Virus record (IMG/VR): IMGVR_UViG_3300045988_131485
Direction: 5' to 3' (one strand)
From: a virus
Length of the DNA stretch: 64,000 bases
Both the position numbers and the translations under genes were made by a program. This document shows, one piece after another, positions 15,671 to 60,312 of this stretch. The notes beneath the pieces were generated by a model. It saw nothing but the letters and a program-made list of their open reading frames with translations, made no database searches and was not told where the DNA came from. Positions within the stretch are counted from its first letter, which is position 1, and each line of letters opens with the position of its first letter.

Positions 15671-15671
15671 T

Positions 15672-15687
15672 TAGTGGCAAAGTAAAT
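15672..15687 (+). repeat. junction motif copy (TAGTGGCAAAGTAAAT)
   Basis: Directly after the stop of the cysteine desulfurase gene and before the RBS of the RNA ligase gene. Confidence 0.6.
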
Positions 15688-15705
15688 TAACAAGGAGTGA
15701 ATATA

Positions 15706-17105
15706 ATGTATTGTGCCTATGTTACCAGGATTCACAATCTGAGGAAGCATACCAATGCCGACCGGCTGCTCTGTGGCGAATGTTTCGGTAATACGGTGAT
15801 TGTGGATCTCGGCACCGACCCTGATCAGCTGGGCGTGTACTTCCCTACCGATGGCAAACTCGGTTTGGAGTTCGCACAGAAGAATGACTTGCTGCGGCGC
15901 AAGGATGAGAACGGCGCTCCGGCTGGCGGATACCTTGACCCGGAGAAGCGGAATATTAAGGCTCTCAAGCTCCGGGGCGAGAAGAGCGACGGTCTGTTCC
16001 TCCCTCTCTCCTGTTTAGCTTCTTTTACCGATATCAAGAAGCTCCAAGAGGGCGATACGATCTCTGTGTTGAACGGTATCACTATCTGCGAGAAGTACGT
16101 ACCCGCCGTCAAACGCGCCTCCGGTAGTGGGGGGGTGGCAATCATGTTCGTAAGCGTTCTGATCCTATCTCCCCGCTCTTCCAAGAACACGCTGACACGG
16201 AGCAGTTGGCCTACAACCTCTCCGCATTCCATGCTGGGGATCTGGTAGAAGTTACCCTGAAAATGCACGGAACTTCTCAGCGTACCGGCTATCTGCCTGT
16301 GTTGCAGGGCTATAAATATCGGAACCGTATGGAAAAGCGGCTCTATGAGAGTCGTAAGACCCCGAATGTGATTCGTTCCAAAATCAAGCGGGCACCCATC
16401 TATGATTGGGGCTATGTTACCGGAACCCGCCGCGTGGTTCTGGATACCTTCGATGAGGGAGGCTTCTACGGTAATAACGCTTTCCGCGAAAAACACGCCA
16501 ACGTCTTTGAAGGAAAGCTCCACAAGGGAGAGACGGTCTACTACGAGGTTGTTGGCTTCACTGACGATGGTACGCCCATCATGAATCCCGGAAACAACTC
16601 TAAGCTGAACGACAAGGAGTTTACTAAACAGTACGGTAAAACCACCACATTCAGCTATGGCTGCGCTCCCGATGGTAAGGAACATCCCAAGTCCGATCTT
16701 TTCGTTTACCGCATGACAATGACCAACGAAGACGGTGATGTGGTGGAGTATCCGCCCGACTTTATGCGCTATCGTTGCGAACAGATGGGCGTCAAATGCG
16801 TCCAAGTGTTCTGCCGCACTATCATCCCGGACTTCTACCAGCTCCCCGACGATGTTGGATCTCCGCAGGCAGTGAACGCCGGCGAGTATGTGAAGAAGCT
16901 GGCTGAGAATTTCTACGACGGCCCCGATCCTGTCGGCCATACCCATGTTCGGGAAGGTGTCGTGTGCCGTATTGTCAACCGTCCCAAGTTCGCCGCCTAT
17001 AAGCATAAAAACTTTGCGTTCAAGGCGCTGGAGGGACTGATCAAAGACACCGCCGCCGCGCCTGATATGGAAGAAGCTCAGGATGTTGGAGAACAGAATG
17101 GATGA
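15706..17105 (+). CDS. RNA ligase, Rnl5 (DraRnl/DRB0094-like); reading frame broken at a G7 tract (16129-16135)
   Basis: N-terminal OB-like domain (NADRL.., VYFPTDGKL, KALKLRGEKSDGLFLPL). After the G-run, in the other frame, come motif I TLKMHGTS, EGVVCR and YKHKNFAFK. One extra G fuses the two frames. Confidence 0.8.
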
Positions 17106-17214
17106 AAAAGTCGTTTTTGGCTTTATCAACAACTTCAAAGCTGGGCAGATATGGAGCAGCTTGACTCAAGCCTATACCGGAGAATGATCCGGGATTGTAT
17201 CAAAAAGGAGCGAT

Positions 17215-18048
17215 ATGACGATGACGACTTTGATCCAGAATGAGCAGAAGCGCCAGAAGATTATGGCGCGGATGCGGGAACATCTGGTGCCCGTCTTGGA
17301 GCATTGCAGGGGAGGCTGGGTCGGCCTCTTCCTGCAAGGTTCTCAGAATTATAACCTTGACTATGAGGGTAGCGATATTGACACCAAGGCAATCATGTTG
17401 CCCAGCTTTTCCGATTTCGTGTTGAACGCCAAACCTCTCAGCACTACCCACATTATGGAGAATAACGAACACGTGGATTTCAAAGACATCCGCCTCATGT
17501 TTGACTGTATCAAGAAGCAGAATGTCAACTTTGTTGAGATCCTGTTCACCCCTTACTCCATCATCAACCCGGAGTATGCCGATCTTTTCCAGCCTGTTCT
17601 GGACGCTCGTGAAGAGATTGCCCGATACAACAACTACGCCGGGATGAACTGCATTATGGGTATGGCTCTGGAAAAGCAAAAGGCAATGGAGCACCCCTAC
17701 CCTGCCACAATGGACAAGATTGAGGCATTTGGGTATGACCCGAAGCAGCTTCACCATGCTCTGCGGCTGCGGGAGTTTATGACCCGTTACGAAGCCGGCG
17801 AGCCTTACGCTGACTGTCTTATCAGTAACCAGTGTGATTATCTCAAAGAGGTGAAGCGCGGTTGCTACTCTTTGAAAGAAGCACGGGCACTGATGAGCAC
17901 TGCAATTCAATCTATGACCGAAGACAAAAAGCGCTATATGGATACGGTGTCTGTTTCGATCAACCAGCACGCCAATGAGGTACTGCAAAAGGCTACCGTT
18001 GAAATTCTCAAACGATCCTTCTTAAAGGAAATCCAAGGAGGAGAATGA
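17215..18048 (+). CDS. Pol-beta-superfamily nucleotidyltransferase (RlaP-like, RNA-repair associated)
   Basis: GLFLQGSQNYNLDYEGSDIDTKAI carries the GS..D.D nucleotidyltransferase motif. Sits between the RNA ligase and the kinase-HD protein. Confidence 0.65.
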   Translation: MTMTTLIQNEQKRQKIMARMREHLVPVLEHCRGGWVGLFLQGSQNYNLDYEGSDIDTKAIMLPSFSDFVLNAKPLSTTHIMENNEHVDFKDIRLMFDCIKKQNVNFVEILFTPYSIINPEYADLFQPVLDAREEIARYNNYAGMNCIMGMALEKQKAMEHPYPATMDKIEAFGYDPKQLHHALRLREFMTRYEAGEPYADCLISNQCDYLKEVKRGCYSLKEARALMSTAIQSMTEDKKRYMDTVSVSINQHANEVLQKATVEILKRSFLKEIQGGE

Positions 18049-18049
18049 G

Positions 18050-18964
18050 ATGCCGATGTTTTACATGATGGTTGGCCTCCCTGGTAGCGGGAAGTCATTC
18101 ACTGCCGAAAGCATCCCTAACGCCGTCGTCCACTCCAGCGATGCGATCCGTGCCGAAGTTCTTGGTGACGAGAACGACCAAACCCAACAGGACTTGGTTT
18201 TCCAAACCCTTCACAAAAGGGTTTTGCAGGATCTGGTGGATGGCAAGGATGTGGTGTACGACGCAACCAATATCAACTACAAGCGCCGTATCGGATTCCT
18301 TGATCGTATCCGAGCGCTCCACAAACATGATTTGCGTACAGTATGTCTTTTCATGGCGACGCCCTATGAGGTGTGTTTGGAGCGCAACAATAATCGGGAA
18401 CGTTCTGTCCCGGAGTCTGTAATCCAAAAGATGTACTTCAAATTCGATGTTCCTATGATGGCAGAGGGTTGGGATGAAATCAGGATCGTGGGTGACGAAG
18501 ATCGCCACGACCAGATTGATACCCTTATGCTTCGTCTCTCCAAGCTGGAACATGATAACCCGCACCATGAGTACACGGTTGGTCAGCACTCTATGACGGC
18601 ATGGCAGTATCTGATCAGCCACTATAAAGGTGCCGATGCTGCTCTGCTCCGCGCCACGCTGTTGCACGATATTGGCAAAGAAAAGACTAAAGTATTTCAT
18701 AACATCAAAGGCAACCCCACTGAGATCGCCCACTTCTATCATCATGAGCGTGTAGGAGCTTATGACAGCTTCTGCTATACCGGCGATCTCAGTCCTAACC
18801 AGCGCCTTACTGTGGCGCTGCTGATCCGCTGGCATATGTGGCCGTATGCGGTTGAAAAGTCAGATAATCCGAGTAAGACGGTTAGCAAAATCAAACGTCT
18901 GCTTGGTAATGATATCTGGAACCAGGTCATGGTGTTGAACGCCTGTGACCGCAATGCACACTGA
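18050..18964 (+). CDS. polynucleotide kinase (P-loop) fused to an HD phosphohydrolase domain (RNA end-healing enzyme)
   Basis: Walker A GLPGSGKS with a T4 Pnk/AAA_33-like N-terminal half. The C-terminal half has HD motifs (LLHDIGK, HHERVGAYD). Confidence 0.75.
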   Translation: MPMFYMMVGLPGSGKSFTAESIPNAVVHSSDAIRAEVLGDENDQTQQDLVFQTLHKRVLQDLVDGKDVVYDATNINYKRRIGFLDRIRALHKHDLRTVCLFMATPYEVCLERNNNRERSVPESVIQKMYFKFDVPMMAEGWDEIRIVGDEDRHDQIDTLMLRLSKLEHDNPHHEYTVGQHSMTAWQYLISHYKGADAALLRATLLHDIGKEKTKVFHNIKGNPTEIAHFYHHERVGAYDSFCYTGDLSPNQRLTVALLIRWHMWPYAVEKSDNPSKTVSKIKRLLGNDIWNQVMVLNACDRNAH

Positions 18965-18980
18965 ATAGGAGGAAATAACT

Positions 18981-19439
18981 ATGATTCCCGACATGATCCA
19001 CACTCCCTACATCGCTCCCCGCATCTCTGTTATGGCACCCCCCCCGGTAACTGCTGAACGGTTCGTTGATGAGCTTCTGAGCGGCCTGTGTATGCCGGAC
19101 GGCGGCTTTGTTGCCCATCTCGCTCCCAGCGGAGATCCTTTCTCCAACGGTTGGAATGCGGCAATGAAGCTCCAAGCCAGTCAGCCTACTTCTCGCTGTT
19201 TGCCGATGCCCGTCAATGTGATCTTTCACAACCCGGCCACCATCGTGTTCTGGGATGACGGTGATAAGACGGTTGTGAAGTGCCAGCCCGGTGATACATT
19301 CAGCGCCGAAGCCGGCCTGACTGCTGCCATGCTGAAGAAGTACATGGGCAACGACAATACTTTCAACAAGGTCATCAACGAGTGGCTGGCTCGTGCCAGC
19401 TATGCCAGCGTCCCCGCTCTGCCGGAGGCCACAGAGTAA
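18981..19439 (+). CDS. hypothetical protein (152 aa)
   Basis: ATG after AGGAGG. Contains the in-frame C8 tract (APPPV). Confidence 0.6.
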   Translation: MIPDMIHTPYIAPRISVMAPPPVTAERFVDELLSGLCMPDGGFVAHLAPSGDPFSNGWNAAMKLQASQPTSRCLPMPVNVIFHNPATIVFWDDGDKTVVKCQPGDTFSAEAGLTAAMLKKYMGNDNTFNKVINEWLARASYASVPALPEATE

Positions 19440-19506
19440 CCAATGGACGGTATCATCCTACTGCTTTTGGCTCTGGTGCTGATTTATACGGTAGGATCGG
19501 GCGGCG

Positions 19507-20481
19507 ATGACGACAATCATTGGAACCGGGGAGGTGGGTGCTTTGCATAGCAGAGAAGAGTTGGAAGAGATGCAGCACCTGCCTCTCCAACGCAAAATCC
19601 AGATCACTACTGCTCGTATCATCGAGTGGTATCAGCACTACGACGGGAAGGTCTATGTGGCATTTAGCGGTGGTAAGGATTCTACCGTACTACTCGATAT
19701 TGTGCGGCGGATCTACCCCGATGTGCCTGCTGTTTTCTCTGATACCGGGCTTGAGTTCCCGGAAGTCAGAGAATTTGTTAAGAGCTGTGAAAACGTTACG
19801 ATTGTCCGGCCTGAGATGAACTTCCGTAAAGTTATTGAGGTGTACGGATATCCCGTTGTCTCGAAGCGTGTAGCTGACACTGTGGAATATGGGCATAAGC
19901 CTGGTTCTTTCAGATGGAAAGAGCTACATGGAGAGATCATGCGGAGCAACGGAACGCCGTCAGAGTTCAACTGTGAAAAATGGTGCTATCTATTGGATGC
20001 CCCATTCAAGGTTTCTTCTCGGTGCTGTACAATCATGAAGAAGCAGCCTATGAAGAAATACTCCAAGGAAACTGGTCGAGTGCCTATTATTGCAACTATG
20101 GCAAACGAGAGCAGATCTCGGCGTGCCACATGGTTACGTATGGGATGCAATGCTTTTTCCGGTAAGAAGCCCAGCTCCCAACCCATGTCTTTTTGGACTG
20201 AGGAAGATGTGCTGGAATACCTCTATACCTATCAAGTCCCCTACGCTTCGGTTTATGGCGAGATCGTCAGAACTGATAGGGGGGGGTGGACGACGACAGG
20301 CGAAAAGCGTACTGGCTGTGTCTTTTGTGCCTTTGGCGCTCACCTTGAAAAAGCTCCAAACCGTTTCCAGCGTCTAAAAATCACGCACCCAAAGCTCTGG
20401 GATTACTGCATGAGGCCGTGGGAAGAACATGGTTTGGGTATGCGGCAAGTCCTTGAGTATATTGGTATTCCGGTAGAATAA
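19507..20481 (+). CDS. PAPS-reductase-family PP-loop ATP pyrophosphatase (IbrA/DndC-like)
   Basis: PP-loop VAFSGGKDSTVLLDIV. C-terminal Cys cluster (CVFCAFG). Start is uncertain (alternative ATG 19570). Contains an in-frame G8 tract. Confidence 0.75.
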   Translation: MTTIIGTGEVGALHSREELEEMQHLPLQRKIQITTARIIEWYQHYDGKVYVAFSGGKDSTVLLDIVRRIYPDVPAVFSDTGLEFPEVREFVKSCENVTIVRPEMNFRKVIEVYGYPVVSKRVADTVEYGHKPGSFRWKELHGEIMRSNGTPSEFNCEKWCYLLDAPFKVSSRCCTIMKKQPMKKYSKETGRVPIIATMANESRSRRATWLRMGCNAFSGKKPSSQPMSFWTEEDVLEYLYTYQVPYASVYGEIVRTDRGGWTTTGEKRTGCVFCAFGAHLEKAPNRFQRLKITHPKLWDYCMRPWEEHGLGMRQVLEYIGIPVE

Positions 20482-20504
20482 TACAAATAAAAAAGGAGCG
20501 CCTT

Positions 20505-21161
20505 ATGATTGATGTAATGGAAAACATCAAAAAACTCTCCGCCGCTTTGGATGCGGAAACTGCAAGCCTACATCCTTCCGGCAAGCTGCTTCTGCTTGGT
20601 TCTCAGGATAGCGTGTTCCTGAAAGCCATCAAGCGTAAGGCAGACCAGCTTGGTATCAACTGTGATCATACGTCCAACCCTCTCCCTCCCTATCGAGGGA
20701 TTGTTGTGGATAGTGAAACAGTGTCGTTCAACTCTATTCTCGATCCTGATGTGGATATTGACCACTCTTATTCTCCCGGAATGTCGGCGGTCTCTCAAGC
20801 AGTCATGGATTTGCTAATTGAGTCTGGATTGGTATGGGAGAAGGATATTACCATCGTAGGCCGAGGGCACGCCGTTAAAGAACTGGCGAAGTATTTGGAC
20901 TTTAACAACGCGACGGTTACAGTAGCACATTCCAAAACAAAAAGCCTGTTGCAAGCTACGCAGAACCGGGATGTGGTGATTTACGCAACTCCGATTATCA
21001 CGCAGGATATTTCCTACAATACCCGCGATCTGGTTATTGATCTGGGAAACAGCGTCCCGCATCCTGACCGGCTTAATTGCCCCTATGTAAATCGGATCGG
21101 ACAGCTTACCGTAAGTATATTGCTGAACCGTTTTGCAAAGAAGGAGTCGGTATGGATCTGA
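20505..21161 (+). CDS. FolD-like methylene-THF dehydrogenase/cyclohydrolase (shortened, 218 aa)
   Basis: FLKAIKRKADQLGI is a FolD N-terminal block. ITIVGRGHAVKELAKYLDFNNATVTVAHSKT is the FolD NAD(P)-binding block. Confidence 0.65.
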   Translation: MIDVMENIKKLSAALDAETASLHPSGKLLLLGSQDSVFLKAIKRKADQLGINCDHTSNPLPPYRGIVVDSETVSFNSILDPDVDIDHSYSPGMSAVSQAVMDLLIESGLVWEKDITIVGRGHAVKELAKYLDFNNATVTVAHSKTKSLLQATQNRDVVIYATPIITQDISYNTRDLVIDLGNSVPHPDRLNCPYVNRIGQLTVSILLNRFAKKESVWI

Positions 21162-21362
21162 AATTCAACACAGTATATTTTACCCAAAAACCTATTCCGC
21201 TGCCCCATGCGATTTTTAAGGGCGGCGAAAATAATTCAAATTTAGAAAGGAGCTAATACCAATCCCGGTAAACCGGGTTTCTACAAGATTGATAAGTGTA
21301 GAGTAAAGCCGTCTGTTACAGCGTGAAAGCCATCTGGCCGGTAGCAAGGGAGGATTAGACGG

Positions 21363-22205
21363 TTGACCTCAGCCGAGATGGTTGTGGTCGGTATGAAGCA
21401 CATCGTTTGTTTTTCTGGCGGTCATTCCTCTGCGATTGCCGCCGTGGAAGTAGTTAGAAAGTTCGGAGCAGAGGACACGATCTTGCTCAATCATGATTTG
21501 TGTCCTCGAACCGAAGACGCTGATATCAAGCGTTTCAAAAAACAGGTTTCGGATTATCTGGGCGTTCCCATTACTTACGCCAATATGCCCGGATGGTATG
21601 TTAAGGATCAGTTCGACGTGTGTATGGAAATCAAGGCGTTTAAGGCTGGCGCTCAGTCCACCGCCTTTTGCACCAACAGACTGAAAACCGAACCTTTTCA
21701 TAAATGGCTGTCCGAGCACTATCCCGCAAATCCTCCCGAAGTAAGGGACGATATCTCATTAGTCTATGGCTTTGACGCCAATGAACAGCACCGTATTCGG
21801 CGCAGAGTTGGCATTATGGCCGCGATGGGGTACCAAACAGAGTACCCTTTGACATGGGAGGTACGTACTATCCATGACATCGAGGAGGTTGGGATTGAGC
21901 GTCCGAAGACCTACAGCATTTTCAATCATGCAAATTGTACCGGGTGTCTGAAAGCCGGCAAACAACATTGGTTTGTTGTTTATTGCCTCTATCCTAAAAT
22001 ATGGGAAAAGGCGAAGCTGGCCGAAGACACAATCGGGTACAGTATTCTCAAACAAGGCTATCTTTCAGACTTTGAGGCGGAATTTGCCAAGCTCAAAGAA
22101 AAGGCGTTGCCGCCCACTGAAAAAGCCAAACCTCAAACATTTTGGGCCGCTGCACGAAAGCTCATCAAGGACGACGATGATCTACCGTGTGAGTGCTCAT
22201 TTTAA
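21363..22205 (+). CDS. second PP-loop (adenine nucleotide alpha-hydrolase / PAPS-reductase-like) protein
   Basis: VCFSGGHSSAIAAV is PP-loop-like, and FCTNRLKTEPF resembles a PAPS-reductase block. TTG start lies after GGGAGG; an alternative ATG is at 21393. Confidence 0.55.
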   Translation: MTSAEMVVVGMKHIVCFSGGHSSAIAAVEVVRKFGAEDTILLNHDLCPRTEDADIKRFKKQVSDYLGVPITYANMPGWYVKDQFDVCMEIKAFKAGAQSTAFCTNRLKTEPFHKWLSEHYPANPPEVRDDISLVYGFDANEQHRIRRRVGIMAAMGYQTEYPLTWEVRTIHDIEEVGIERPKTYSIFNHANCTGCLKAGKQHWFVVYCLYPKIWEKAKLAEDTIGYSILKQGYLSDFEAEFAKLKEKALPPTEKAKPQTFWAAARKLIKDDDDLPCECSF

Positions 22206-22218
22206 GGAGTTGTTTAAG

Positions 22219-22785
22219 ATGAAGATTCTTGTAATAGTGGATATGCAAAACGATTTCATCAATGGTGCGCTCGGAACCCCGGAGGCGCAGGCCGCTGTTG
22301 GAGATGTCGCCAAAAAGATTTCTGGCTTTGACGGAGACCTGATTTGCATTACCAAGGACACCCATCGTTCTGCCGACTACCTGAAAACCCAAGAAGGTCA
22401 GCTACTTCCTGTCGAGCACTGCATTGAGGGGACTCACGGCTGGCGGCTCGACGATATCATTGCCACGGCTGTTAGCCATGCGGCTATCGACGCGGAGAAA
22501 AGCGTATCCGTATTCCAGAAAGGTACGTTTGGCTCTGTGGAGTTGGGCGATTACCTGGTAGAGCTTTCCGCCAGAAGGAAGCAGCGCATTGAAGAGATCG
22601 TTTTCGTTGGACTCTGCACCGACATCTGCGTTATCTCTAACGCACTGCTCGTCAAAGCGTTTCTACCTGAGACGAAAATCACCGTTGACGCTGCCTGCTG
22701 TGCCGGCGTTACCCCGGCAAGCCACAAAAATGCTCTGGCTGCTATGAAAGCGTGCCAGATCAATGTGGAGAACTGGGAGGTCTGA
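22219..22785 (+). CDS. pncA: isochorismatase-family cysteine hydrolase, nicotinamidase-like
   Basis: ILVIVDMQNDF, and the catalytic Cys context VGLCTDICV. Confidence 0.75.
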   Translation: MKILVIVDMQNDFINGALGTPEAQAAVGDVAKKISGFDGDLICITKDTHRSADYLKTQEGQLLPVEHCIEGTHGWRLDDIIATAVSHAAIDAEKSVSVFQKGTFGSVELGDYLVELSARRKQRIEEIVFVGLCTDICVISNALLVKAFLPETKITVDAACCAGVTPASHKNALAAMKACQINVENWEV

Positions 22786-22786
22786 A

Positions 22787-23599
22787 ATGATTTTTGTTGA
22801 CGATAGAAGGATTGACTTCACCAGTTTCCCCGACGGTACATCTTCGATCCGTATTGCTCCCAAGCTGGATTTCACATTTTTCGCCATGGGTAAATCCGCT
22901 TACTTCATCCGGTGGATGTACGACAATGATGCCGAGTGTATGCAACTCTGGTATTTGGTGAAGCACCTCAAGAGCGCCGGCAACCCGCTCCTCTATCTGG
23001 AGATGCCGTATATCCCCAACGCCCGTATGGACAGGGTGAAGAACCGCGACGAGGTATTCACGCTCAAGTGGTTCGCCGAGTTTATCAATTCGCTCGGGTT
23101 CGAGTCTGTCAAAGTTCTCGACCCCCACTCTAATGTGGCTATGGCGCTGATTAACCGGGCTGAGACCATGGATGTGAAGCACTACATCGACTATGCAATC
23201 CAGTGGATGGTCAGTCAGGGTATGAATCCTCTGCTGTGTTACCCGGATGAAGGTGCCGCCAAACGATACTCTGAGCTTCTTCCTATGGAGTATGTTTTTT
23301 GCATTAAACATCGTGACTGGCGCACCGGCAAGATTGAGCGGCTGGAGCTGACAGAGCCTGAGAAAGTCAACGGCAGAAATATTCTGATTGTGGACGATAT
23401 CTGCTCTCGCGGTGGGACATTCACCCATACTGCCAAAGCTCTGAAAGAGGCCGGCGCGGAGGAAGTTATGCTCTATGTTACCCACTGTGAGAACACGATC
23501 CTGAAAGGCACTGTGTTGACAGATGGTCTTATCTCTCGTGTATTCGCCACTGATAGCATCCTCCGTATTGATCACGAGAAGATTTCCATTTGCAGATGA
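22787..23599 (+). CDS. ribose-phosphate pyrophosphokinase-like protein (Prs / Adps-like)
   Basis: PRPP-binding loop NILIVDDICSRGGTFTH. ATG 22787 lies 7 nt after GGGAGG. Adjacent to the NAMPT-like gene. Confidence 0.75.
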   Translation: MIFVDDRRIDFTSFPDGTSSIRIAPKLDFTFFAMGKSAYFIRWMYDNDAECMQLWYLVKHLKSAGNPLLYLEMPYIPNARMDRVKNRDEVFTLKWFAEFINSLGFESVKVLDPHSNVAMALINRAETMDVKHYIDYAIQWMVSQGMNPLLCYPDEGAAKRYSELLPMEYVFCIKHRDWRTGKIERLELTEPEKVNGRNILIVDDICSRGGTFTHTAKALKEAGAEEVMLYVTHCENTILKGTVLTDGLISRVFATDSILRIDHEKISICR

Positions 23600-23620
23600 T
23601 TATGAAAAGAGGGTAAAACA

Positions 23621-25114
23621 ATGATTTCATACAGTCCTTTGCTCTGTTTGGACTTCTACAAGACTGCCCATGCAGAGCAGTACCCCGCAGCACTGACCAA
23701 GATGGTGTCTTATTACACCCCGCGCATGACACGGCTGGCTGATACCAAGAAGGTCACAATGTTCGGTCTTCAGGCATTTATCCAGGAGTATTTGATTGAG
23801 GCGTTCAATACTCACTTCTTTGATCGCTCATTGGATGAGGTGCTTGCCGAATACAAGCGGGTGCTGAATAACACCATCGGCACGGACGGCGTTGGTGTGG
23901 AGCGTTTGACGGCGCTTCATAAGTTGGGGTATCTGCCTCTGGAAATCCGGGCCGTGCCGGAAGGAACCCGTACCAGTATTCATGTTCCGCAAATTGAGAT
24001 CTCGAATACCAACCCCAACTTTGTGTGGTTGGTCAACTCTATCGAAACAATGCTGTCATGTACCATGTGGCATACTCAGATTTCAGCGGAAGTTGGATAT
24101 CGTTACCGGCAGATCGTCAATAAGTACGCTGCCCTTACCTGTGACGATGATGTGGTACGGGCCAAGCTGCTGGGCGACTTTTCCATGCGTGGTCAGGAAA
24201 GCGTGGAGAGCGCCACCAAGAGTTCTGCTGCGTTCTGCCTGAGCTTCCTTAATACCGCTACAGTGCCGGCTATTCTTTGGCTGGAACACAACTACGCCTG
24301 CCGGGTGGAGAATGACGCAGTAGCTTATGGTGCTCTTTCTACTGAGCACAGTGTTATGTGCTCCAACTATGCGGTTGACGGCGATGAGATTACGCACGTG
24401 CGGCGTCTGCTGAAAGAAATCTATCCGTACCAAAACTTCTCTATGGTCAGTGACAGCTATGACTATTGGAACCTGGTCAATAATATTCTCCCCGCAATTA
24501 AAGAGGATGTGATGGAGCACCATGGATGTCTTGCTATTCGCGGCGACAGCGGCAACCCCGTGGAGATTGTAACCGAGACGGTGTTCAAACTGTGGGAAAT
24601 TTTTGGTGGTACCGTGAATAGCAAGGGTTACAAAGTTCTTGATCCACACGTCAAGGCATTGTATGGCGATAGCATTACCCCGCAGCGGTGCGAGGCAGTG
24701 TATAAGATCCTGATGGAGCATGGCTTCGCTATCAACAATGTTTCTCTGGGTGTCGGTTCTTTCTCTATGCAGTGTCTGGAGACGATGGACGGCGGTGAAA
24801 AGACTTATGCGCCGTATACCCGTGATACATTTGGTATCGCAGTCAAAGCGACCTATGCAGAAGATGCTGACGGAAAGCCCATCATGATTTTTAAGAACCC
24901 CAAGACAGATAGCGGACATTTCAAGAAGTCTCAGCGCGGCTGCTGTAAGGTTGTATATGACTATACGTACCACAACTTCTTCTGTCAGGACGGTTTGACT
25001 TGGGAGGTGTCGCAGGCTGGGAACTGGCTTCAGCCAGTTTTCAAGGATGGAAAGCTCCTGAGAATTTATACCCTGGATGAGGTTCGCAAGAATCTTCATG
25101 AGGGAAACTTTTGA
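23621..25114 (+). CDS. nicotinamide phosphoribosyltransferase family protein (NadV/NAMPT or Namat-like)
   Basis: CLDFYKTAHAEQYP, DFSMRGQES, STEHSVM, SDSYDYW, IRGDSGNP and LYGDSIT are NAMPT family blocks. Confidence 0.8.
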   Translation: MISYSPLLCLDFYKTAHAEQYPAALTKMVSYYTPRMTRLADTKKVTMFGLQAFIQEYLIEAFNTHFFDRSLDEVLAEYKRVLNNTIGTDGVGVERLTALHKLGYLPLEIRAVPEGTRTSIHVPQIEISNTNPNFVWLVNSIETMLSCTMWHTQISAEVGYRYRQIVNKYAALTCDDDVVRAKLLGDFSMRGQESVESATKSSAAFCLSFLNTATVPAILWLEHNYACRVENDAVAYGALSTEHSVMCSNYAVDGDEITHVRRLLKEIYPYQNFSMVSDSYDYWNLVNNILPAIKEDVMEHHGCLAIRGDSGNPVEIVTETVFKLWEIFGGTVNSKGYKVLDPHVKALYGDSITPQRCEAVYKILMEHGFAINNVSLGVGSFSMQCLETMDGGEKTYAPYTRDTFGIAVKATYAEDADGKPIMIFKNPKTDSGHFKKSQRGCCKVVYDYTYHNFFCQDGLTWEVSQAGNWLQPVFKDGKLLRIYTLDEVRKNLHEGNF

Positions 25115-25130
25115 GAAAAGAGGTGCCACA

Positions 25131-25874
25131 ATGTTAGCTAACCCAAAGCGTACTAAGGATGAGATTGTCCAGTGGATTCGTTCCTACTTTGAAAGTAACG
25201 GCCCTGGCTGCGATGCGGTGGTCGGTATTTCTGGTGGTAAAGATTCCAGCGTTGTCGCCGCTCTTTGCGTAGAGGCACTGGGCAAAGAGCGTGTAGTGGG
25301 TGTTATGATGCCGAATGGAGAACAGCCCGATCTGGACGATAGCAAGCAGCTGATCGAATTTCTGGGTATCAGATACGCCTATACCGATATCTCCAAAGCA
25401 GTGTCTGCGGTAAGTGATCAAGTAGCGCTCAATATGAACGTCAGCGATCAGACGAGGATAAACCTCCCTCCCCGTATCCGTATGGCGACCCTCTATGCTA
25501 TTTCTCAGTCGTTGCCTCACGGCGGACGTGTTGCTAATACCTGCAACCGCTCTGAAGACTATGTGGGATACTCTACCAAGTTTGGCGATAGCGCCGGCGA
25601 TTTTAGCCCGCTCGCTAATCTGATGGTGCATGAAGTCATCCAGATTGGGTACGAGCTTCTTCTGCCTATCAACCTGATAAGCAAGACCCCTTCCGATGGG
25701 CTGTGTGGAAAAACTGATGAGGATAATCTTGGATTTACCTATGCTCACCTGGATGCTTACATCATGTATGGCACCAGTGGAATTGAGGAAATCGACAAGA
25801 AGATTGCCTCTATGCACGATCACAACCTTCACAAGCTCAATTCTATGCCTGCCTACGGAACGACAATTTTTTAA
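25131..25874 (+). CDS. nadE: NH3-dependent NAD+ synthetase
   Basis: PP-loop VVGISGGKDSSVVAAL. NadE-like length (247 aa). ATG lies after AGAGGTG. Confidence 0.8.
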   Translation: MLANPKRTKDEIVQWIRSYFESNGPGCDAVVGISGGKDSSVVAALCVEALGKERVVGVMMPNGEQPDLDDSKQLIEFLGIRYAYTDISKAVSAVSDQVALNMNVSDQTRINLPPRIRMATLYAISQSLPHGGRVANTCNRSEDYVGYSTKFGDSAGDFSPLANLMVHEVIQIGYELLLPINLISKTPSDGLCGKTDEDNLGFTYAHLDAYIMYGTSGIEEIDKKIASMHDHNLHKLNSMPAYGTTIF

Positions 25875-25888
25875 TAGGCGGTGAGAAA

Positions 25889-26494
25889 ATGGAAGAGCGT
25901 ACTTATTTGAGCGGCACCAGTTTGGCCGGTATGTCCCCTACCCGCTCTCGTGTGGAGAACGACTACTATGCTACTCCGTTCGAGGCGACAGAAGCCATCC
26001 TTAGCCGAGAAGAGCTGCACGGCTCCATTTTGGAGCCTGCGGCTGGTGAAGGGCATATCAGTAAGGTGCTTCGGGAACATTATCCCAACAGTCAAATTAT
26101 CTCTACTGATATGGTTCAGAGAGATGATAGGTTCGGATGTGGTATTGTTGGCGGGGTGGATTTCCTCACTGAGAACTATCCCGAAAAATTCAACAACGTC
26201 ATCACGAACCCTCCGTTCTCTTTGGCGAAAGAGTTCGCTGAGAAAGCTCTGGAGGTATCCACTGGCAAGGTGATCCTGTTCGCCAAGATCCAGTTTCTCG
26301 AAGGACGGCAACGTAAGGATTTCTTTGCCACCCACCCTCCGAAAGCCGTGTATGTATTTTCAAAACGTGTCAATCCTTTGAGAAACGGATTGGAAGTTGA
26401 CGAAAATGGTAAGCCCTGGTCAAGTACCATGTGCTTCGCTTGGTTCGTATGGGAACATGGCTATACCGGCGAACCTTGCATTCGTTGGATTTAA
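25889..26494 (+). CDS. N6-adenine DNA methyltransferase
   Basis: YYATPFEATEAIL, AdoMet loop ILEPAAGEGHI, and motif IV ITNPPFS. Confidence 0.8.
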   Translation: MEERTYLSGTSLAGMSPTRSRVENDYYATPFEATEAILSREELHGSILEPAAGEGHISKVLREHYPNSQIISTDMVQRDDRFGCGIVGGVDFLTENYPEKFNNVITNPPFSLAKEFAEKALEVSTGKVILFAKIQFLEGRQRKDFFATHPPKAVYVFSKRVNPLRNGLEVDENGKPWSSTMCFAWFVWEHGYTGEPCIRWI

Positions 26495-26495
26495 T

Positions 26496-26511
26496 TTGCA
26501 ACAAAGTAAAT
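26496..26511 (+). repeat. junction motif copy (TTGCAACAAAGTAAAT)
   Basis: Starts 2 nt after the TAA stop of 25889..26494 and precedes the RBS AAGAGGTG. Confidence 0.6.
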
Positions 26512-26525
26512 CAAGAGGTGCAGCT

Positions 26526-27052
26526 ATGAAGATGGATAAGGTTGCCGGCAGTGGCAACGACGAGTTCTATACACCGGAGTATGCGATTGCCCCGTTGTAC
26601 AAGTATCTTCCACCCCCCCCGTGACAATTTGGTGTCCGTTTGACACTGAGGATAGTCTGTTTGTAAAGCTCTTTCGGCAACGCGGCTATACCGTTATCGC
26701 AACACATATTGCAAACGGTCAGGATTTTTTCGCTATTGACCCACCGAAGTGTGACTACATCATCAGTAATCCTCCGTATTCCCTCAAAGGCGAAGTGTTT
26801 GAGCGACTATTCCAGTTGAATATACCCTTTGCTATGTTGGTAGGGGTCGTCGGACTTTTCGAGAGTCAGAAACGCTTTAAGATGTTCCGTGAGCATGATT
26901 TTGAAATCATGTATCTCAATCGGCGTGTATCTTACTTTAAGAACTACGCCGACCAAAAGCCGTCTCTAAACCCGCCTTTCAGTAGTGTCTATGTATGCAA
27001 AGGAATGTTACCAAAGCAGATTATCTTTGAAGAAATTCAAAAAACCTCATAA
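26526..27052 (+). CDS. N6-adenine DNA methyltransferase; reading frame broken at a C8 tract (26613-26620)
   Basis: MKMDKVAGSGNDEFYTPEYAI..YLPPPP, then after the C-run in another frame TIWCPFDTEDS.. with motif IV ISNPPYS. C9 or C6 would fuse the two parts. Confidence 0.75.
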
Positions 27053-27068
27053 TAGCAACAAAGAAAAT
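27053..27068 (+). repeat. junction motif copy (TAGCAACAAAGAAAAT)
   Basis: Directly after the stop codon. Its 3' extension (..aaaattaTTGACT) runs directly into the -35 of the next promoter. Confidence 0.6.
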
Positions 27069-27070
27069 TA

Positions 27071-27099
27071 TTGACTTTATGGAGACAGTATGATAGAAT
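27071..27099 (+). promoter_or_regulatory. sigma-A-type promoter with extended -10
   Basis: TTGACT (27071-27076), 17-nt spacer ending TGA, TAGAAT (27094-27099). Confidence 0.65.
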
Positions 27100-27142
27100 A
27101 AAAGCAGTTCGAGGGAGATTGTAAATCCCTCAACCTTCCGTT

Positions 27143-27158
27143 TAGCAACAAAGAAAAC
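27143..27158 (+). repeat. junction motif copy (TAGCAACAAAGAAAAC) in the leader of the C5-methyltransferase gene
   Basis: About 40 nt downstream of the -10 and followed by AAAGGAGG. Confidence 0.6.
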
Positions 27159-27177
27159 CAACAAAGGAGGAACTAAT

Positions 27178-28055
27178 TTGGATTACCAAACTGCCCTTTT
27201 CTGCGAGTTCGATCGTTACGCCGCAGAAAGCTATTGCGCCGTTCATGGTGTTGATCCCACCCTTAACATCGGAGATATTACCAAAGCCGATGAGAAGGCT
27301 GTGCCGGATTTCAATGTCATGTTCGGTGGAAGTCCGTGTCAGGATTTCAGCATAGCAGGCAAACAGGGGGGGGCTGCATGGACTTGTAAGCATTGCGGCC
27401 ACGTATATAATCCCCTGGAAGCTCACTATGATCAACGCGACCATTGCCCTAAGTGCGGATCAACTGAAATCGAGAAGACTCGCTCTTCCTTACTGGTCGA
27501 ATGGCTGCGTTTCCTAAGAGAAAAGAAGCCTCGCTTCGCTATCTACGAGAACGTTAAAAATATTACCGGTTCTCGCTTCTATGCCACTTTTAACCTCTTT
27601 GTCAAAGAGCTGGAAGACTACGGTTACAACGTCTACTGGCAGGTTCTGAATGCAAAACACTACGGAATCCCCCAGAATCGTGAGCGTGTTTACTGTGTCA
27701 TCATTCGTAAGGATTTAGATAATGGGAAGTTTAAGTTCCCGTCTCCTATCCCTTTGAAAAAAGCGCTGGTAGATATGCTGGAGGATAAGGTTGACGAGCG
27801 ATACTACCTGCCTGATGACAAGGTAGCTGCCATGATAACCCCCCCCGTTCAGACAAATCAGTAACACCGTCCGCACCAGCGGAAGAGGTTCCACAGACCA
27901 CCACTGCTGGGACTTGCTCACTTGCCGGTGTGAAGCTGAGTAAGAAAGGCACCCAGTTTGAAGGATACTGTGAGACGGCCTTGACTTTGCTGGCCCGTGA
28001 CTATAAGGGCTTTGGAAATCAGCAAATGACAGGAGTTATGGAGCATAATGAGTAA
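27178..28055 (+). CDS. dcm: DNA cytosine-5 methyltransferase, part 1 (motifs II-VIII plus first TRD block); no motif I; frame broken at a C8 tract (27839-27846)
   Basis: TTG start. FCEFDRYAAESY (II), GGSPCQDFSIAGKQ (IV), FAIYENVKNI (VI), QNRERVY (VIII). After the C-run in the other frame comes ..TLLARDYKG... CxxC..CxxC insert between motifs IV and V. Confidence 0.75.
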
Positions 28056-28967
28056 GCGATATATTATCCCCGCTGCAATTCGTGGAAGATATGCGGGGGG
28101 GGTAAGATAATACAGCGTTTGGAAGTTCGCCCTAATATGTGTACCAACACTTTGACGGGTGTTCAAAAAGACAATGTATTGATTGAGATAGATGAAAGCG
28201 AGGAAGCTAATGTGAAAATCGTATGTGAGCGTCGATGCGATGAAGGTGTGCGTTTTTTCAAAGATAATGTCTGCGGCACTATTCGCACCATTGATGGGGG
28301 GGGGGACAAGAGAGTGATTGAAAGAAGTCCTACGTCAGAAGATAAAATCACAATGATTGGCGGCTTACAAAAGCACCAGACTCCAAGAAACGATGGTATT
28401 TGCCCATGCATAAATAGTGCCGCTGGTATGGGCGGCGGACAAACACCTATCGCAATACGCCCGAGTTTTCGTGTCCGTAAACTTACGCAAAAAGAGTGTT
28501 GGCGTTTAATGGGTTTCCAAGATCAGGACTTTGAACGTGCCAAATCCGCCATGAACGAAAATATCTATGGTGGAGCAGATAGGAGCGGGTCACAGCTTTA
28601 CAAGCAGGCTGGAAACTCTATCGTGGTAGACGTTCTCTGTGCCATTTTGGATGAACTTCACAGTGCTATGCCGTATCTCTTTGAAGATATGACTGTTGGT
28701 TCTTTCTTTTCCGGTATCGGAGCATTTGAAAAAGCACTGTCTACTTTTGATATTACCGATGTTAGCGACAAAGTAAATTATTCTGATAAGAATGATGAAC
28801 TGAAGCAGCTCGGATATATCAATGATTACAATGGAGACGCCAATCGTGTATATGATGGCGAAACCATTGCACGTGCTTTGAAAGCCGAAGCGGGAGGGGG
28901 CGGAGCCAAGACTGGATGGTATGCTCTGAGAAGCCCGGAGGTTGACCATGGAGAAAGTCAGAATTAA
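28048..28967 (+). CDS. dcm: DNA cytosine-5 methyltransferase, part 2 (several TRD-like blocks, motifs IX and X, then motif I); frame broken at a G8 tract (28095-28102)
   Basis: MSKRYIIPAAIRGRYAGG / KIIQRLEVRPNMCTNTLTGVQKDN. RKLTQKECWRLMGFQD (IX), QAGNSIVVDVL (X), then MTVGSFFSGIGAFEKAL (I) in frame. In-frame G10 tract at 28296. Confidence 0.7.
28763..28778 (+). repeat. junction motif copy (TAGCGACAAAGTAAAT) inside the ORF, immediately after the displaced motif-I segment
   Basis: ..FDITD|VSDKVNY.. Followed by ATTATTCTG, as in the copies at 10925 and 51723. Confidence 0.65.
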
Positions 28968-29422: not shown

Positions 29423-29682
29423 TGTATGGTGAATACACCTGTCTGGACTGTGGCAAAACCTTTGACGATCCGAAGCGATGGGAAGAACGCCATGGGTTAG
29501 ATTCTCCGCCCTATGAGGATTTCAGCGGTTGTCCTTACTGTGGCGGAGCCTATGCCCGTACTATCCTTTGCGATGCCTGCGGAGAACCGATAGTCGGCGA
29601 TTATGTCAAAATCCAAACAACTGGCGACTGCTATTGTGATGAATGCTTCATGATGAAATCGCTGGGCGAAGATGATCCATGA
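29422..29682 (+). CDS. zinc-ribbon protein (86 aa)
   Basis: CLDCGK..CPYCGG..CDACGE..CYCDEC are four Cys pairs. ATGA-type overlap with the upstream gene. Confidence 0.55.
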   Translation: MYGEYTCLDCGKTFDDPKRWEERHGLDSPPYEDFSGCPYCGGAYARTILCDACGEPIVGDYVKIQTTGDCYCDECFMMKSLGEDDP

Positions 29683-29696
29683 GAAGAGGTCGTGAA

Positions 29697-30476
29697 ATGA
29701 AAACTTCAGTCAAACGGCGTGCGAAAAACTGCATACGGGGAGCGGTTTTATTGGCCTGTTTCATTGCCGTCTGGTATGTGGCCTCGTGCTTCACCCAACC
29801 GCTGTTTATCCCCGCCCCTGCTACCGTCTGGGAAGCAATCGTCGGGTTGGCAGAGACAGGCCAGTTGCAAAAAGGACTTGCCTACTCTTTCCTGCGGATT
29901 ACTGGTGCGTCTGCTCTTTCTATGCTGGTAGCAATTCCCCTCTCCCTTCTGATTTATGGCGTGAAGCCTATCAAGGAAACTATCATGCCGGTTGTTTCCT
30001 TCCTGCGGTATGTTCCCGTAACCGCATTTTCTCCGCTCCTGATCCTATGGTTTGGGATTGGGGAGCAGATGAAAATTTCGTTCCTATTTATTGCAACGTT
30101 TGTCTACTTGCTGCCGTCGATCCTGCTTTGCTTTAACGACGTACCGCAAGATCTGATGGATACGGGCAAGACAATCGGAATGACCAGTTGGGAGACAATC
30201 AAAGAAATCCTGCTCCCCGCATCGCTCCCTTCAATATTCAGTACGTTCCTTATGATGTATGGCATTGGCTGGACATACTGCGCCGTGGTAGAGGCAACCA
30301 ACGCTAAGTACGGCTTGGGCTTCATCATCAATGTAAGCTCCGCCAGAGGCCGTACCGCCGTGGTGTTCGGGGCAATCATCGTAATCATGTTGTTCAGCTT
30401 CGTTTTTGACAAGCTGGGGAACTTGCTGATCCGAAAGATATTCCAGTGGAGGTACTGCGATGATCAAGTTGAATGA
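29697..30476 (+). CDS. ABC transporter permease (NitT/TauT-type)
   Basis: Six hydrophobic segments. EAA-like loop DLMDTGKTIGMTSWETIKEILLPASLPSI. Confidence 0.8.
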   Translation: MKTSVKRRAKNCIRGAVLLACFIAVWYVASCFTQPLFIPAPATVWEAIVGLAETGQLQKGLAYSFLRITGASALSMLVAIPLSLLIYGVKPIKETIMPVVSFLRYVPVTAFSPLLILWFGIGEQMKISFLFIATFVYLLPSILLCFNDVPQDLMDTGKTIGMTSWETIKEILLPASLPSIFSTFLMMYGIGWTYCAVVEATNAKYGLGFIINVSSARGRTAVVFGAIIVIMLFSFVFDKLGNLLIRKIFQWRYCDDQVE

Positions 30477-31101
30477 TCTGGCTATTGGGTACAACGGCGA
30501 AGCAATTCTGGAGCACATCGACCAGGAATTTGACGACGGTTTGATTTACGGTATTTTGGCGAAGTCTGGTGCCGGTAAGACGACTCTCCTCAAAACCATC
30601 TCTGGCCTTCTTCACCCTGTTCATGGTGAGGTTATCATTGATGGCACTACCTATCGGAACGCCGACAAGAACCCTGTGTACATGATGCATCAGCGCTATT
30701 CCAACTTCGGATGGCTTTCCTGCACGGAGAATGTGCTGATTGCCCAACGGGACAAAAAACTCCGTAGCCGCGATGACGCTATCAAGGTACTTGCAGCGGT
30801 TGGGTTAGAGCAGTATGCAGATAAATGGCCGTCTCAGCTATCAGGTGGTATGCAACAGCGCCTTGCGTTGGCGAGAACACTGTATGTCAAGCCGAAATAC
30901 CTACTTATGGATGAACCGTTATCCGCTTTGGACGACAAAACCCGTAGCAAAATGCAGCGTTTGATTTTGGATGTCCATGCTGAGACAGGCAACACAATCA
31001 TTATGGTAACGCACAGCCAGGACGAGGCGTTCAAAATGTGCGATAAAATAATCAAATTTGAAACGAGAGGAGCTGTAACAAACCATGGCAGGTTTATTTG
31101 A
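30460..31101 (+). CDS. ABC transporter ATP-binding protein
   Basis: Walker A AKSGAGKTT, signature LSGGMQQR, Walker B LLMDEPLSALD, H-loop VTHS. Confidence 0.85.
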   Translation: MIKLNDLAIGYNGEAILEHIDQEFDDGLIYGILAKSGAGKTTLLKTISGLLHPVHGEVIIDGTTYRNADKNPVYMMHQRYSNFGWLSCTENVLIAQRDKKLRSRDDAIKVLAAVGLEQYADKWPSQLSGGMQQRLALARTLYVKPKYLLMDEPLSALDDKTRSKMQRLILDVHAETGNTIIMVTHSQDEAFKMCDKIIKFETRGAVTNHGRFI

Positions 31102-31645
31102 ACGCATGGGACTGGTTCGTACCGAATACGAAGGTATGCCTGAAATCCCTATGCAACCCGTATTCGAGCCTATGTACGCGCCTGAGACGCCGGTAATTGA
31201 CGCTACTCAGGTGTCCTATGATGATGTGATCGCATCCATCTATCAGCAGGGCGATATCGACGACGAGAACTCGATCTTCAAGATCAAAGCGTATATCGAC
31301 ATTCTGCCCCAGGATATGACTAAGGCCAAGAAACAGGCGTCCATCGCCGGCATTCTCAGCGTCAACGGGATCAATGTGGATGATCTCATTGAGGACGGTC
31401 TGAAGCGTGGTCGCGCCTTGGACGCTGCCGAGGATAGTATTAGGGCGGAAAACGATGCGCTGATCGCTGAGACCGAGGCGGATATCGAACATCTGAAGTC
31501 CCTGATCGAGCAGGCGGAAGCCAGAATTGAGGACTCCAAACAAAAGACCTCTGATTCCAGCGCCGCCATCCAGAAGGAAAAAGAAGCTATCAGTCAACTC
31601 TTGGAGTTTGCGAACGGCGTTGCCGGTAAGGAAGGAGCACAGTAA
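31085..31645 (+). CDS. hypothetical acidic coiled-coil protein (186 aa)
   Basis: ORF overlaps the ATPase gene end. The C-terminal half is heptad-like and acidic. Confidence 0.55.
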   Translation: MAGLFERMGLVRTEYEGMPEIPMQPVFEPMYAPETPVIDATQVSYDDVIASIYQQGDIDDENSIFKIKAYIDILPQDMTKAKKQASIAGILSVNGINVDDLIEDGLKRGRALDAAEDSIRAENDALIAETEADIEHLKSLIEQAEARIEDSKQKTSDSSAAIQKEKEAISQLLEFANGVAGKEGAQ

Positions 31646-32460: not shown

Positions 32461-32466
32461 CTTACC

Positions 32467-52963: not shown

Positions 52964-52965
52964 CA

Positions 52966-58141: not shown

Positions 58142-58222
58142 ATCTGGGAAAGCTGGGTAGGGAATCACGACAAGTATATTGAAGATGTTGCCTGTTCCAA
58201 ATTAGGAGTGAAAAGATAATCT

Positions 58223-58680: not shown

Positions 58681-58682
58681 CC

Positions 58683-58886: not shown

Positions 58887-58897
58887 GAGACTGCCGT

Positions 58898-60301: not shown

Positions 60302-60312
60302 TAGCATAAAAA

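Follow-up and report, generated by a model that had tools for sequence, protein, structure and literature searches.

A four-gene NAD+ island in a gut Clostridia phage as a possible deamidated derivative of the NARP1 pathway

Depletion of NAD+ is among the most widespread anti-phage strategies of bacteria, and the phage pathways NARP1, NARP2 and NARP3 are known metabolic counter-measures. NARP1 consists of two enzymes, Adps and Namat (Osterman et al., bioRxiv 10.1101/2024.02.11.579819; structures in PMC12774641 and PMC13586617). In NARP1-AP these are joined by Adpp, a macro-domain phosphatase that converts ADP-ribose (ADPR)-1''-phosphate to ADPR for use by Adps (10.64898/2026.01.28.702374). In the literature searched on NARP1, NARP1-AP, NARP2 and NARP3, neither NadE nor a nicotinamidase is mentioned, nor are nicotinic acid and nicotinic acid adenine dinucleotide (NaAD), and no account of a variant with these components came up. 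Here we describe a four-gene NAD+ island at positions 22219-25874 of a 64-kb stretch of a phage genome (IMG/VR record IMGVR_UViG_3300045988_131485; this stretch is called the window below, and the remaining genome lies outside it). In the island an Adps-like gene and a Namat-derived gene are flanked by genes for a predicted nicotinamidase and for the NAD synthetase NadE, and the Namat-derived protein carries substitutions at three positions of its pyridine pocket that go together with the two flanking genes across the family. On balance we lean towards reading the island as a four-enzyme, deamidated derivative of NARP1, in which nicotinamide would be converted to nicotinate and ADPR to ADPR-pyrophosphate (ADPR-PP), with both then feeding the synthesis of NaAD and finally of NAD.

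The four genes of the island

The initial annotation placed a nicotinamidase-like gene, a Prs-like gene, a NAMPT-family gene and nadE at this position. All four open reading frames (ORFs) are found there on the plus strand, and every motif that it quoted is present in their translations. The genes are co-directional and tightly packed in an operon-like arrangement, with gaps of 1, 21 and 16 nt separating PncA, Adps, the Namat-like gene and NadE when corrected starts are used. Homolog alignments and Shine-Dalgarno sites indicate that Adps likely starts at ATG 22787, in an ORF that opens at 22763, and that NadE likely starts at ATG 25131, in an ORF that opens at 25077. A GGAG-like site lies 5' of each of the four genes; among these are AAGGAG located 8 nt 5' of the PncA ATG, GGGAGG before the Adps ATG and AAGAGG before the NadE ATG. 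A scan of positions 21000-27200 for promoters and terminators returned sites no more numerous than in shuffled sequence and hence sets no limits to the operon. Since the island DNA gave only short, weak matches when searched against 50,697 phage records, all further comparisons were made at the protein level.

A profile built from 13 homologs of the first protein has as its best match the solved nicotinamidase 1ilw of P. horikoshii (2.5e-21), followed by 2h0r, 3pl1, 3o90 and 2wt9 (yeast Pnc1, M. tuberculosis PncA and the S. pneumoniae and A. baumannii enzymes), which are likewise solved nicotinamidases or pyrazinamidases. The protein contains the catalytic triad D8/K101/C137 and the nicotinamidase-specific metal site D47/H49/H67. 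In 81 distinct homologs D8, D47, H49, H67 and C137 are invariant, and K101 is present in 74 of them. Its score of 32 against the NCBIfam equivalog is far below the cutoff of 174, which marks it as a divergent family member, and functions within the isochorismatase family are diverse. By residues and profile placement we therefore treat it as a predicted nicotinamidase.

The adjacent Prs-like and NAMPT-like genes had been taken as the signature of NARP1 in the initial annotation, which proposed that their products be compared with Adps and Namat versus Prs and NadV. This comparison bears out the assignment, as the two proteins group with Adps and Namat and not with Prs and Nampt. The Adps-like protein is 37% identical to the verified SPbetaL1 Adps (153-165 bits) and 33% identical to the verified ICP1 Adps (122 bits), versus 69-77 bits obtained with Prs of E. 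coli and S. solfataricus. The two verified enzymes give 90-97 bits with one another, so that each is nearer to the window protein than to its counterpart. The family phrog_619 is common to the window protein and both verified Adps with similar scores, and the NCBIfam Prs model TIGR01251 gives 103 bits, under its cutoff of 113. ADPR-pyrophosphorylating activity has been demonstrated for both SPbetaL1 and ICP1 Adps (10.1101/2024.02.11.579819; PMC13586617), and the residues of the ICP1 enzyme that hold ADPR and catalyze transfer have been described (PMC13586617). The window protein has equivalents of ICP1 F18, R87, H121, D161, K185, D212 and D213, all of which are conserved across 80 distinct homologs. 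It also ends where Adps ends and is without the C-terminal regulatory helices of Prs. By these comparisons it belongs with Adps rather than with Prs.

The best PDB matches of the third protein are the SPbetaL1 Namat structures 9w5w/9w5x at 385 bits, compared with 166 bits for Xanthomonas (Xcc) Nampt and 143 bits for human NAMPT. The Namat core residues are kept as D11, Y13, F187, R190, H243, R307 and D309 (SPbetaL1 D13, Y15, F189, R192, H245, R306 and D308) and do not vary in 80 homologs, and there is likewise no change in the ring-stacking and ribose-phosphate residues. The PncB-type domains PF17767 and PF17956 were not detected in the transferase, and comparison with the PncB of Bacillus phage G gave 23 bits only. 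Judged from its matches, the protein is Namat-derived and not a Nampt.

The fourth protein scores 172 bits against TIGR00552 (cutoff 63.65) and best matches the NH3-dependent P. horikoshii enzyme 2e18 (130 bits), with the Francisella enzyme 3fiu as the second PDB match. It has the PP-loop SGGKDS and no glutaminase domain, and SGGxDS is kept in 82 distinct homologs. Cyanophage NadE genes were considered as a parallel case and rejected, as the copy examined, that of S-SSM7, is located among sugar-modification genes with no Namat.

The initial annotation had also noted that the window contains no nicotinamide mononucleotide (NMN) adenylyltransferase (NMNAT), which our searches uphold. The NMNAT signatures (H/T)xGH and ISSTxxR occur in no frame of the window, and none of the 39 window ORFs scanned with Pfam matches PF01467. 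Neither a PncB-type enzyme, NadD or other NMNAT nor NadR or PnuC was found in the window. Bacillus phage G, taken as a positive control, has both a PncB-type NAPRTase and NadD.

The pyridine pocket and its gene companions

In SPbetaL1 Namat, Asp215 is hydrogen-bonded to nicotinamide, and both Asp215 and Ala242 are named as residues of the nicotinamide pocket (PMC12774641). The amide is bound in human NAMPT by the equivalent residue, Asp219, while human nicotinate phosphoribosyltransferase (NaPRT) has Ser214 at this position and holds the carboxylate with Arg318 (PMC4442680). The amide-binding Asp is not kept in the window protein, which has Ala213 in a region that aligns to 9w5x with no gaps nearby, and across the clade this residue is Ala or Ser. 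Two further pocket positions, 185 and 240, are also changed (Table 1), and the NaPRT Arg318 counterpart, R307, is conserved.

These substitutions are fixed among relatives of the window protein. Position 213 is Ala in all of the 120 best homologs from a 5.8-billion-protein collection (74-98% identity, with some clusters holding >3000 member sequences) as well as in 80 of 80 locus sequences. In the 80 distinct altered-pocket sequences position 185 is invariably G, S or C and position 240 invariably Ser, whereas canonical sequences have H and Ala, respectively. Of the 150 top-ranking cluster representatives (clusters at 50% identity), 89 had the triad H-D-A, ∼51 had [G/S/C/A]-[A/S]-S and ∼10 were mixed or incomplete. 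The pocket triad is thus a bimodal character of the whole family. An IMG/VR search around representatives with Ser213, the residue found at the human NaPRT Ser214 position, gave no match above 48% identity and recovered 17 A-S-S and 3 S-S-S loci. A separate H-E-A triad, with Glu at the amide-binding position, is found in Prevotella phage Lak-B7 (L017) and six other loci; Lak-B7 has no Adps, PncA or NadE within 8 kb.

The selectivity-clamp helix of the window protein is remodelled as well. F381 (equivalent to F392), T400, R401 and D402 are kept, the positions of Tyr394 and Tyr396 are occupied by Met and Cys, and the helix carries an insertion that is 13 aa long in the window protein and varies in length across homologs. 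A new conserved aromatic residue precedes the clamp TRD, giving the clade form YxP[YF]TRD. In the clamp loop, R38 occupies the position of the stacking residue (Arg, Lys or Tyr) that is R40 in SPbetaL1 and is present in 78 of 80 homologs. The SPbetaL1 clamp pair with the most damaging double mutation, R40/F392, is therefore conserved as R38/F381. Further clade-specific changes are RGDSG in place of RPDSG and a 12-residue deletion after PVEIV. Phage phAss-1, whose published description annotates the genes and does not discuss them, combines a G-A-S triad with a canonical clamp (GAYTYQYVTRD), RPDSG and the long loop. As the triad occurs in phAss-1 without the clamp insertion, it is the pocket triad and not the insertion that tracks the extra genes. 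In a neighbor-joining tree a single clade holds the altered-pocket sequences, with phAss-1 branching off first, and its sister group is the canonical Namat of Gram-positive phages. Many Namat/Nampt-family proteins (among P0121-P0270 and H15-H23) are 550-1100 aa long and match the query in 2-5 stretches, in most cases with a break near query residue 318-323, precisely the site of the 12-residue deletion in the window clade. This loop may thus have received insertions repeatedly, in the form of inteins, homing elements or fused domains.

To survey gene content we took 267 loci, each with at most 8 kb of flanking sequence, from IMG/VR, GenBank phages and GTDB genomes, scanned their six-frame ORFs with hidden Markov models made from window-clade proteins, and collapsed identical Namat ORFs to 202 distinct loci. 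PncA, Adps and NadE are all present within 8 kb in 109 of 118 altered-pocket loci, which range from 30 to 100% identity to the window; of the nine exceptions five are incomplete at contig ends, three are without NadE and one is without Adps. This is contrasted by the canonical loci, of which 79 of 84 have Adps only and five have none of the three genes. Neither PncA nor NadE was detected within 8 kb in any of these 84 loci, eight of which were drawn from a gut dataset that also supplied many of the altered-pocket loci. The four-gene set is retained down to about 30% identity. In sub-clades PncA lies upstream, or else downstream of NadE, Adps can be located downstream at +4.2 kb, and unrelated genes are inserted at times. 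Because gene order varies in this way, it is the gene set and not just synteny that is conserved. In related loci an inserted RtcB-like ligase gene separates Adps from the Namat-like gene (e.g. L010:4157-5410).

Among deposited phage records, 1975 have a Namat/Nampt homolog, 41 a NadE homolog and seven a PncA-like homolog, and the closest matches (>40% identity) are throughout from uncultured faecal phages or phAss-1. Complete four-gene modules also occur on contigs binned to an Odoribacter metagenome-assembled genome and to that of a Methanomassiliicoccaceae archaeon (L107, L108), which are either mis-binned phage contigs or an indication of a host range beyond Clostridia.

A macro-domain gene is present in 51 loci, all but one of the altered-pocket type; among the first 100 loci that were fetched, a set made up mostly of altered-pocket modules, about half have it. 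In 47 of the 51 its neighbours are the Namat-like gene on one side and NadE on the other. For the protein from a related locus the match to Pfam Macro is weak (E = 9e-4, below the cutoff), and homologs of the gene are labelled macro, Appr-1-p or phosphatase in 2105 phage records. The window lacks this gene. A small HAD-like protein is encoded after the Namat gene instead in 10 loci, among them those of phAss-1 and of the canonical NARP1 phage ALPS (gp65, 'phosphatase').

A candidate route from nicotinamide to NAD+

From the gene content we propose the following sequence of reactions. PncA would hydrolyze the nicotinamide that a defence NADase frees from NAD+, yielding nicotinate and NH3, and Adps would use ATP to convert the other cleavage product, ADPR, to ADPR-PP with release of AMP. 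The Namat-derived enzyme would then join nicotinate and ADPR-PP to give NaAD and pyrophosphate, and NadE would convert NaAD, NH3 and ATP to NAD+, AMP and pyrophosphate, with the NH3 possibly supplied by the first reaction. As the product of the third reaction would already be a dinucleotide, no NadD or other NMNAT would be needed; Adps and the Namat-derived enzyme would take the place of PncB and NadD because the ADP-ribose donor brings the adenylate with it.

The sequence comparisons show which genes are present, their placement in families, the conservation of catalytic residues, the pocket substitutions and the strict association of these with PncA and NadE; from this we infer a substrate switch to nicotinate, the use of ADPR-PP as donor and a role against host defence. 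A deamidated NARP1 variant comprised of PncA, a transferase and NadE had been suggested in the initial annotation, and it gains support from the grouping with Adps and Namat, the Asp to Ala change in the pocket, the co-occurrence in 109/118 versus 0/84 loci and the lack of NMNAT and PncB in the window. For the more specific proposal we see the case as evenly balanced, namely that the third protein is a nicotinate:ADPR-PP ADP-ribosyltransferase, an activity not described so far, with NaAD formed in a single step, within a four-gene 'deamidated NARP1' that bypasses PncB and NadD, is common in human-gut Clostridia phages and can be recognized by the signature [G/S/C/A]185, [A/S]213, S240.

Several observations weigh against this interpretation. 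All activities of the pathway are deduced from sequence, and the AlphaFold2 model of the transferase, built on a shallow alignment, has a mean pLDDT (predicted local distance difference test) of 67.7 and falls below 50 at residues 185-253 and 378-408. The window covers only 64 kb of the phage, an NMNAT or NadD may be encoded elsewhere, and the host certainly has NadD. The altered-pocket clade seems to have one origin, and the co-occurrence counts are consequently not phylogenetically independent events. The route costs one ATP more than NARP1 for the same net chemistry. The clamp helix is interrupted by the insertion and has lost two Tyr residues to Met and Cys, so that a preference for ADPR-PP should not be assumed. 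Finally, the D215A mutant of SPbetaL1 Namat forms NAD+ at an 8-fold lower level (PMC12774641), and with about one eighth of the activity left an enzyme with Ala at this position could still use nicotinamide. Regarding the additional ATP, we can only speculate that benefit might come from trapping nicotinamide, which is otherwise membrane-permeant, as the nicotinate anion, from an irreversible ATP-driven last step, from abundant nicotinate in the gut or host, or from escaping a host measure that removes nicotinamide.

The residual activity of D215A with nicotinamide would also fit an ordinary NARP1 that has gained two unrelated additions, with PncA and NadE boosting the Preiss-Handler pathway of the host and the pocket changes representing lineage noise or some other tuning. 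Having two salvage routes side by side would still be of use when NAD is depleted, and co-inheritance within a clade of single origin could mimic functional coupling. We nevertheless consider this explanation unlikely, since the three pocket positions covary almost perfectly across 50%-identity clusters and stay fixed down to ∼30% identity while the rest of the protein has diverged, and since Ser at position 213 equals the residue of a true nicotinate phosphoribosyltransferase (PMC4442680). A co-expressed nicotinamidase would furthermore destroy the substrate of a nicotinamide-dependent Namat, and not one of the 84 canonical Namat loci examined has acquired either gene.

A second alternative concerns the donor, which the initial annotation left open between ADPR-PP and phosphoribosyl pyrophosphate (PRPP). 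In a PRPP-run Preiss-Handler salvage, the Prs-like protein would make PRPP, the transferase would combine it with nicotinate to nicotinic acid mononucleotide (NaMN), host NadD would form NaAD and phage NadE would perform the last step. NadD is near-universal in bacteria, which would make a phage copy unnecessary, and Preiss-Handler enzymes do occur in phages such as Bacillus phage G. The remodelled adenine-clamp helix of the window enzyme would also be in line with this route, as would the use of PRPP by Namat in vitro (10.1101/2024.02.11.579819; PMC12774641). On the other side, the partner protein lies within the Adps family and keeps the Phe that contacts the adenine of ADPR together with the other Adps residues, and SPbetaL1 Adps shows no Prs action (10.1101/2024.02.11.579819). 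An Adpp-like macro gene, which points to handling of ADPR-1''-phosphate, is found in about half of the loci examined. Phage phAss-1 joins the altered pocket to a canonical adenine clamp, and R38 and F381 are conserved in the clade. In addition, the one phage island that we found to be clearly PRPP-based, that of phage G, has a PncB-type enzyme and its own NadD. Taken together, the data are compatible with PRPP but favor ADPR-PP as the probable donor, and we regard PRPP-run salvage as quite improbable.

Least probable of all, in our view, is a general NAD-boosting auxiliary module without a defence role, or one acting on another pyridine base, another amide or NaMN (through a Francisella-type NadE, 3fiu being an enzyme that we take to prefer NaMN); the isochorismatase family is broad enough to accommodate this, but the hydrolase has the metal site and triad of nicotinamidases and lies nearest to solved nicotinamidases, an NMN-synthetase route would depend on an NMNAT, which our searches of the window did not find, and Adps needs free ADPR, which comes mainly from NAD+ cleavage.

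Surroundings of the island and relation to known systems

Copies with 98-99% identity occur in Hominicoprocola fusiformis and Dysosmobacter segnis assemblies (Oscillospiraceae; L103, L105), and many gut contigs in IMG/VR, 70-125 kb in length, also have them. These copies, together with a Tn916-type integrase near the window end, identify the carrier of the island as a temperate phage or prophage of gut Oscillospiraceae (Clostridia). At positions 58000-64000 the GC content falls from ∼0.49 to 0.43-0.45, and this region is probably the prophage end or attachment region. Across the 64 kb the island is surrounded by a phage replication and nucleotide-metabolism block with ThyX, a dNMP kinase, a 5'-nucleotidase, a dUTPase fusion, a PD-(D/E)XK nuclease and DNA methyltransferases.

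The genes at 14504-22205 upstream of the island suggest a sulfur- or one-carbon-dependent module for nucleic-acid modification. The PAPS-reductase-like pair and the FolD-like gene were considered as members of the island and rejected because they are kept in the closest relatives only. Directly 3' of NadE, 25889-28967 on the plus strand is taken up by a series of DNA-methyltransferase-like genes, no fewer than four, whose matches are weak and MTS- and Dam-like, which is typical anti-restriction content; reading of the translations indicates that one of cytosine-C5 type is split across two ORFs (27178-27864 and 28119-28967). They are followed on the same strand by an apparently complete ABC importer of the NitT/TauT family (sulfonate/taurine/nitrate) at 29679-34041, and any tie of this importer to niacin uptake is pure speculation. 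The AAA_28 domain fused to dUTPase belongs to a P-loop family that we take to include the ribosylnicotinamide-kinase domain of NadR. Genes resembling RNA-repair functions are also scattered through the window (Table 1).

Table 1. Positions of the island genes, pocket codons and other features (window coordinates unless a locus is named)
Feature	Position	Strand	Remarks
PncA-like nicotinamidase (predicted), 188 aa	22219..22785	+	Pfam PF00857 isochorismatase, 4e-22
Adps-like ADP-ribose pyrophosphokinase, 270 aa	22787..23599	+	phrog_619 'ribose-phosphate pyrophosphokinase', 6e-71
Namat-derived transferase, 497 aa, altered pyridine pocket	23621..25114	+	NAPRTase/NAMPT_N; phrog_448, 3e-155
Codon G185	24173..24175	+	Namat His187 (human NAMPT H191) in canonical sequences
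Codon A213	24257..24259	+	replaces Namat Asp215 (human NAMPT Asp219)
Codon S240	24338..24340	+	replaces Namat Ala242, nicotinamide-pocket residue
Selectivity-clamp helix motif, remodelled	24755..24826	+	GSFSMQCLE-(variable loop)-YAPYTRD vs canonical GSFTYQYNTRD
NH3-dependent NAD synthetase NadE, 247 aa, single domain	25131..25874	+	PF02540, 9e-52
Class-V aminotransferase/cysteine desulfurase	14504-15670	+	upstream of NAD island
AAA_33 kinase + HD phosphohydrolase (RNA-repair-like)	18050-18964	+	
PAPS-reductase-like PP-loop proteins (two)	19507-20481, 21363-22205	+	phrog_424
FolD-like protein, truncated	20505-21161	+	
ABC permease	29679-30476	+	
ABC ATPase	30460-31101	+	
PspA/IM30-like gene	31645-32460	+	between importer genes
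SsuA-like substrate-binding protein, 524 aa	32467-34041	+	fused to OmpA-like peptidoglycan-binding domain
HAD_SAK_2 'Swiss army knife' HAD domain (RNA-repair-like)	36537-36998	+	
AAA_28 + dUTPase domain fusion	48752-49777	+	
Thg1-like tRNA-His guanylyltransferase (RNA-repair-like)	52882-53820	+	
Tn916-type tyrosine integrase	60718-62001	+	
Protein with CapR homology domain	61998-62594	+	
Macro-domain gene (Poa1p/Adpp-like), 164 aa	L009:8488-8982		related locus

If the deamidated reading is correct, the island would add a fourth route by which phages rebuild NAD+ from the same debris, ADPR and nicotinamide, in this case by way of nicotinate and NaAD, and it would include a new reaction of NAD metabolism in the direct synthesis of NaAD without NadD. 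The pocket triad would then serve as a sequence rule, H-D-A versus x-[A/S]-S, to separate nicotinamide-type from nicotinate-type enzymes among thousands of proteins annotated as 'NAMPT', and it suggests a minimal mutational path for re-engineering specificity in this family. The NAD arms race would have diversified in phages of gut Clostridia, which are almost absent from cultured collections; the closest match there is 60% identical and comes from an uncultured phage. The extra ATP spent may point to an undescribed host counter-measure that acts against NARP1 on the nicotinamide pool.

Among described systems the island is most similar to NARP1, with which it shares adjacent Adps and Namat-family genes that lie 21 nt apart on one strand, the catalytic and ADPR-binding residues of Adps, the core of Namat (the Phe/Tyr ring clamp, Arg and catalytic His) and the equivalents of Arg40 and Phe392. 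It differs from NARP1 in having Ala for Asp215, Ser for Ala242 and Gly for His187, in a clamp helix with a variable insertion, and in the company of a nicotinamidase and an NH3-dependent NadE that is seen with the altered-pocket pair and with none of the 84 canonical loci. The macro-domain accessory of related altered-pocket modules resembles that of NARP1-AP, which the window itself does not match as it has no macro gene. NARP2 (Nampt and NMNAT, Vibrio phage KVP40) and NARP3 (PnuC and NadR; PMC13464706) are likewise phage-encoded means of rebuilding NAD+ in the face of NAD-depleting defences, but the window is without NMNAT, NadR and PnuC and its transferase is much nearer to Namat than to Nampt.

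With the Preiss-Handler pathway (PncA-PncB-NadD-NadE) the island shares the first and last enzymes and, if the proposed route holds, nicotinate and NaAD as intermediates, whereas the middle steps, in which PncB forms NaMN from nicotinate and PRPP and NadD forms NaAD from NaMN and ATP, are missing in the window. A full Preiss-Handler island is found in Bacillus phage G (NC_023719.1 200590-213330; L109), with an isochorismatase (gp275), a PncB-type NAPRTase (gp277), NadD (gp281) and NadE (gp283); a NUDIX hydrolase (gp273) and a KptA-like RNA 2'-phosphotransferase (gp280) are encoded near it. The window transferase is similar to NaPRT/PncB in having a small uncharged residue at the position of NAMPT Asp219 and the carboxylate-binding Arg, but its scaffold is that of Namat/NAMPT and it is without PncB-type domains. 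Collectively, these comparisons suggest a module that is derived from NARP1, probably operates in the same manner and is likely to include a new enzyme specificity.

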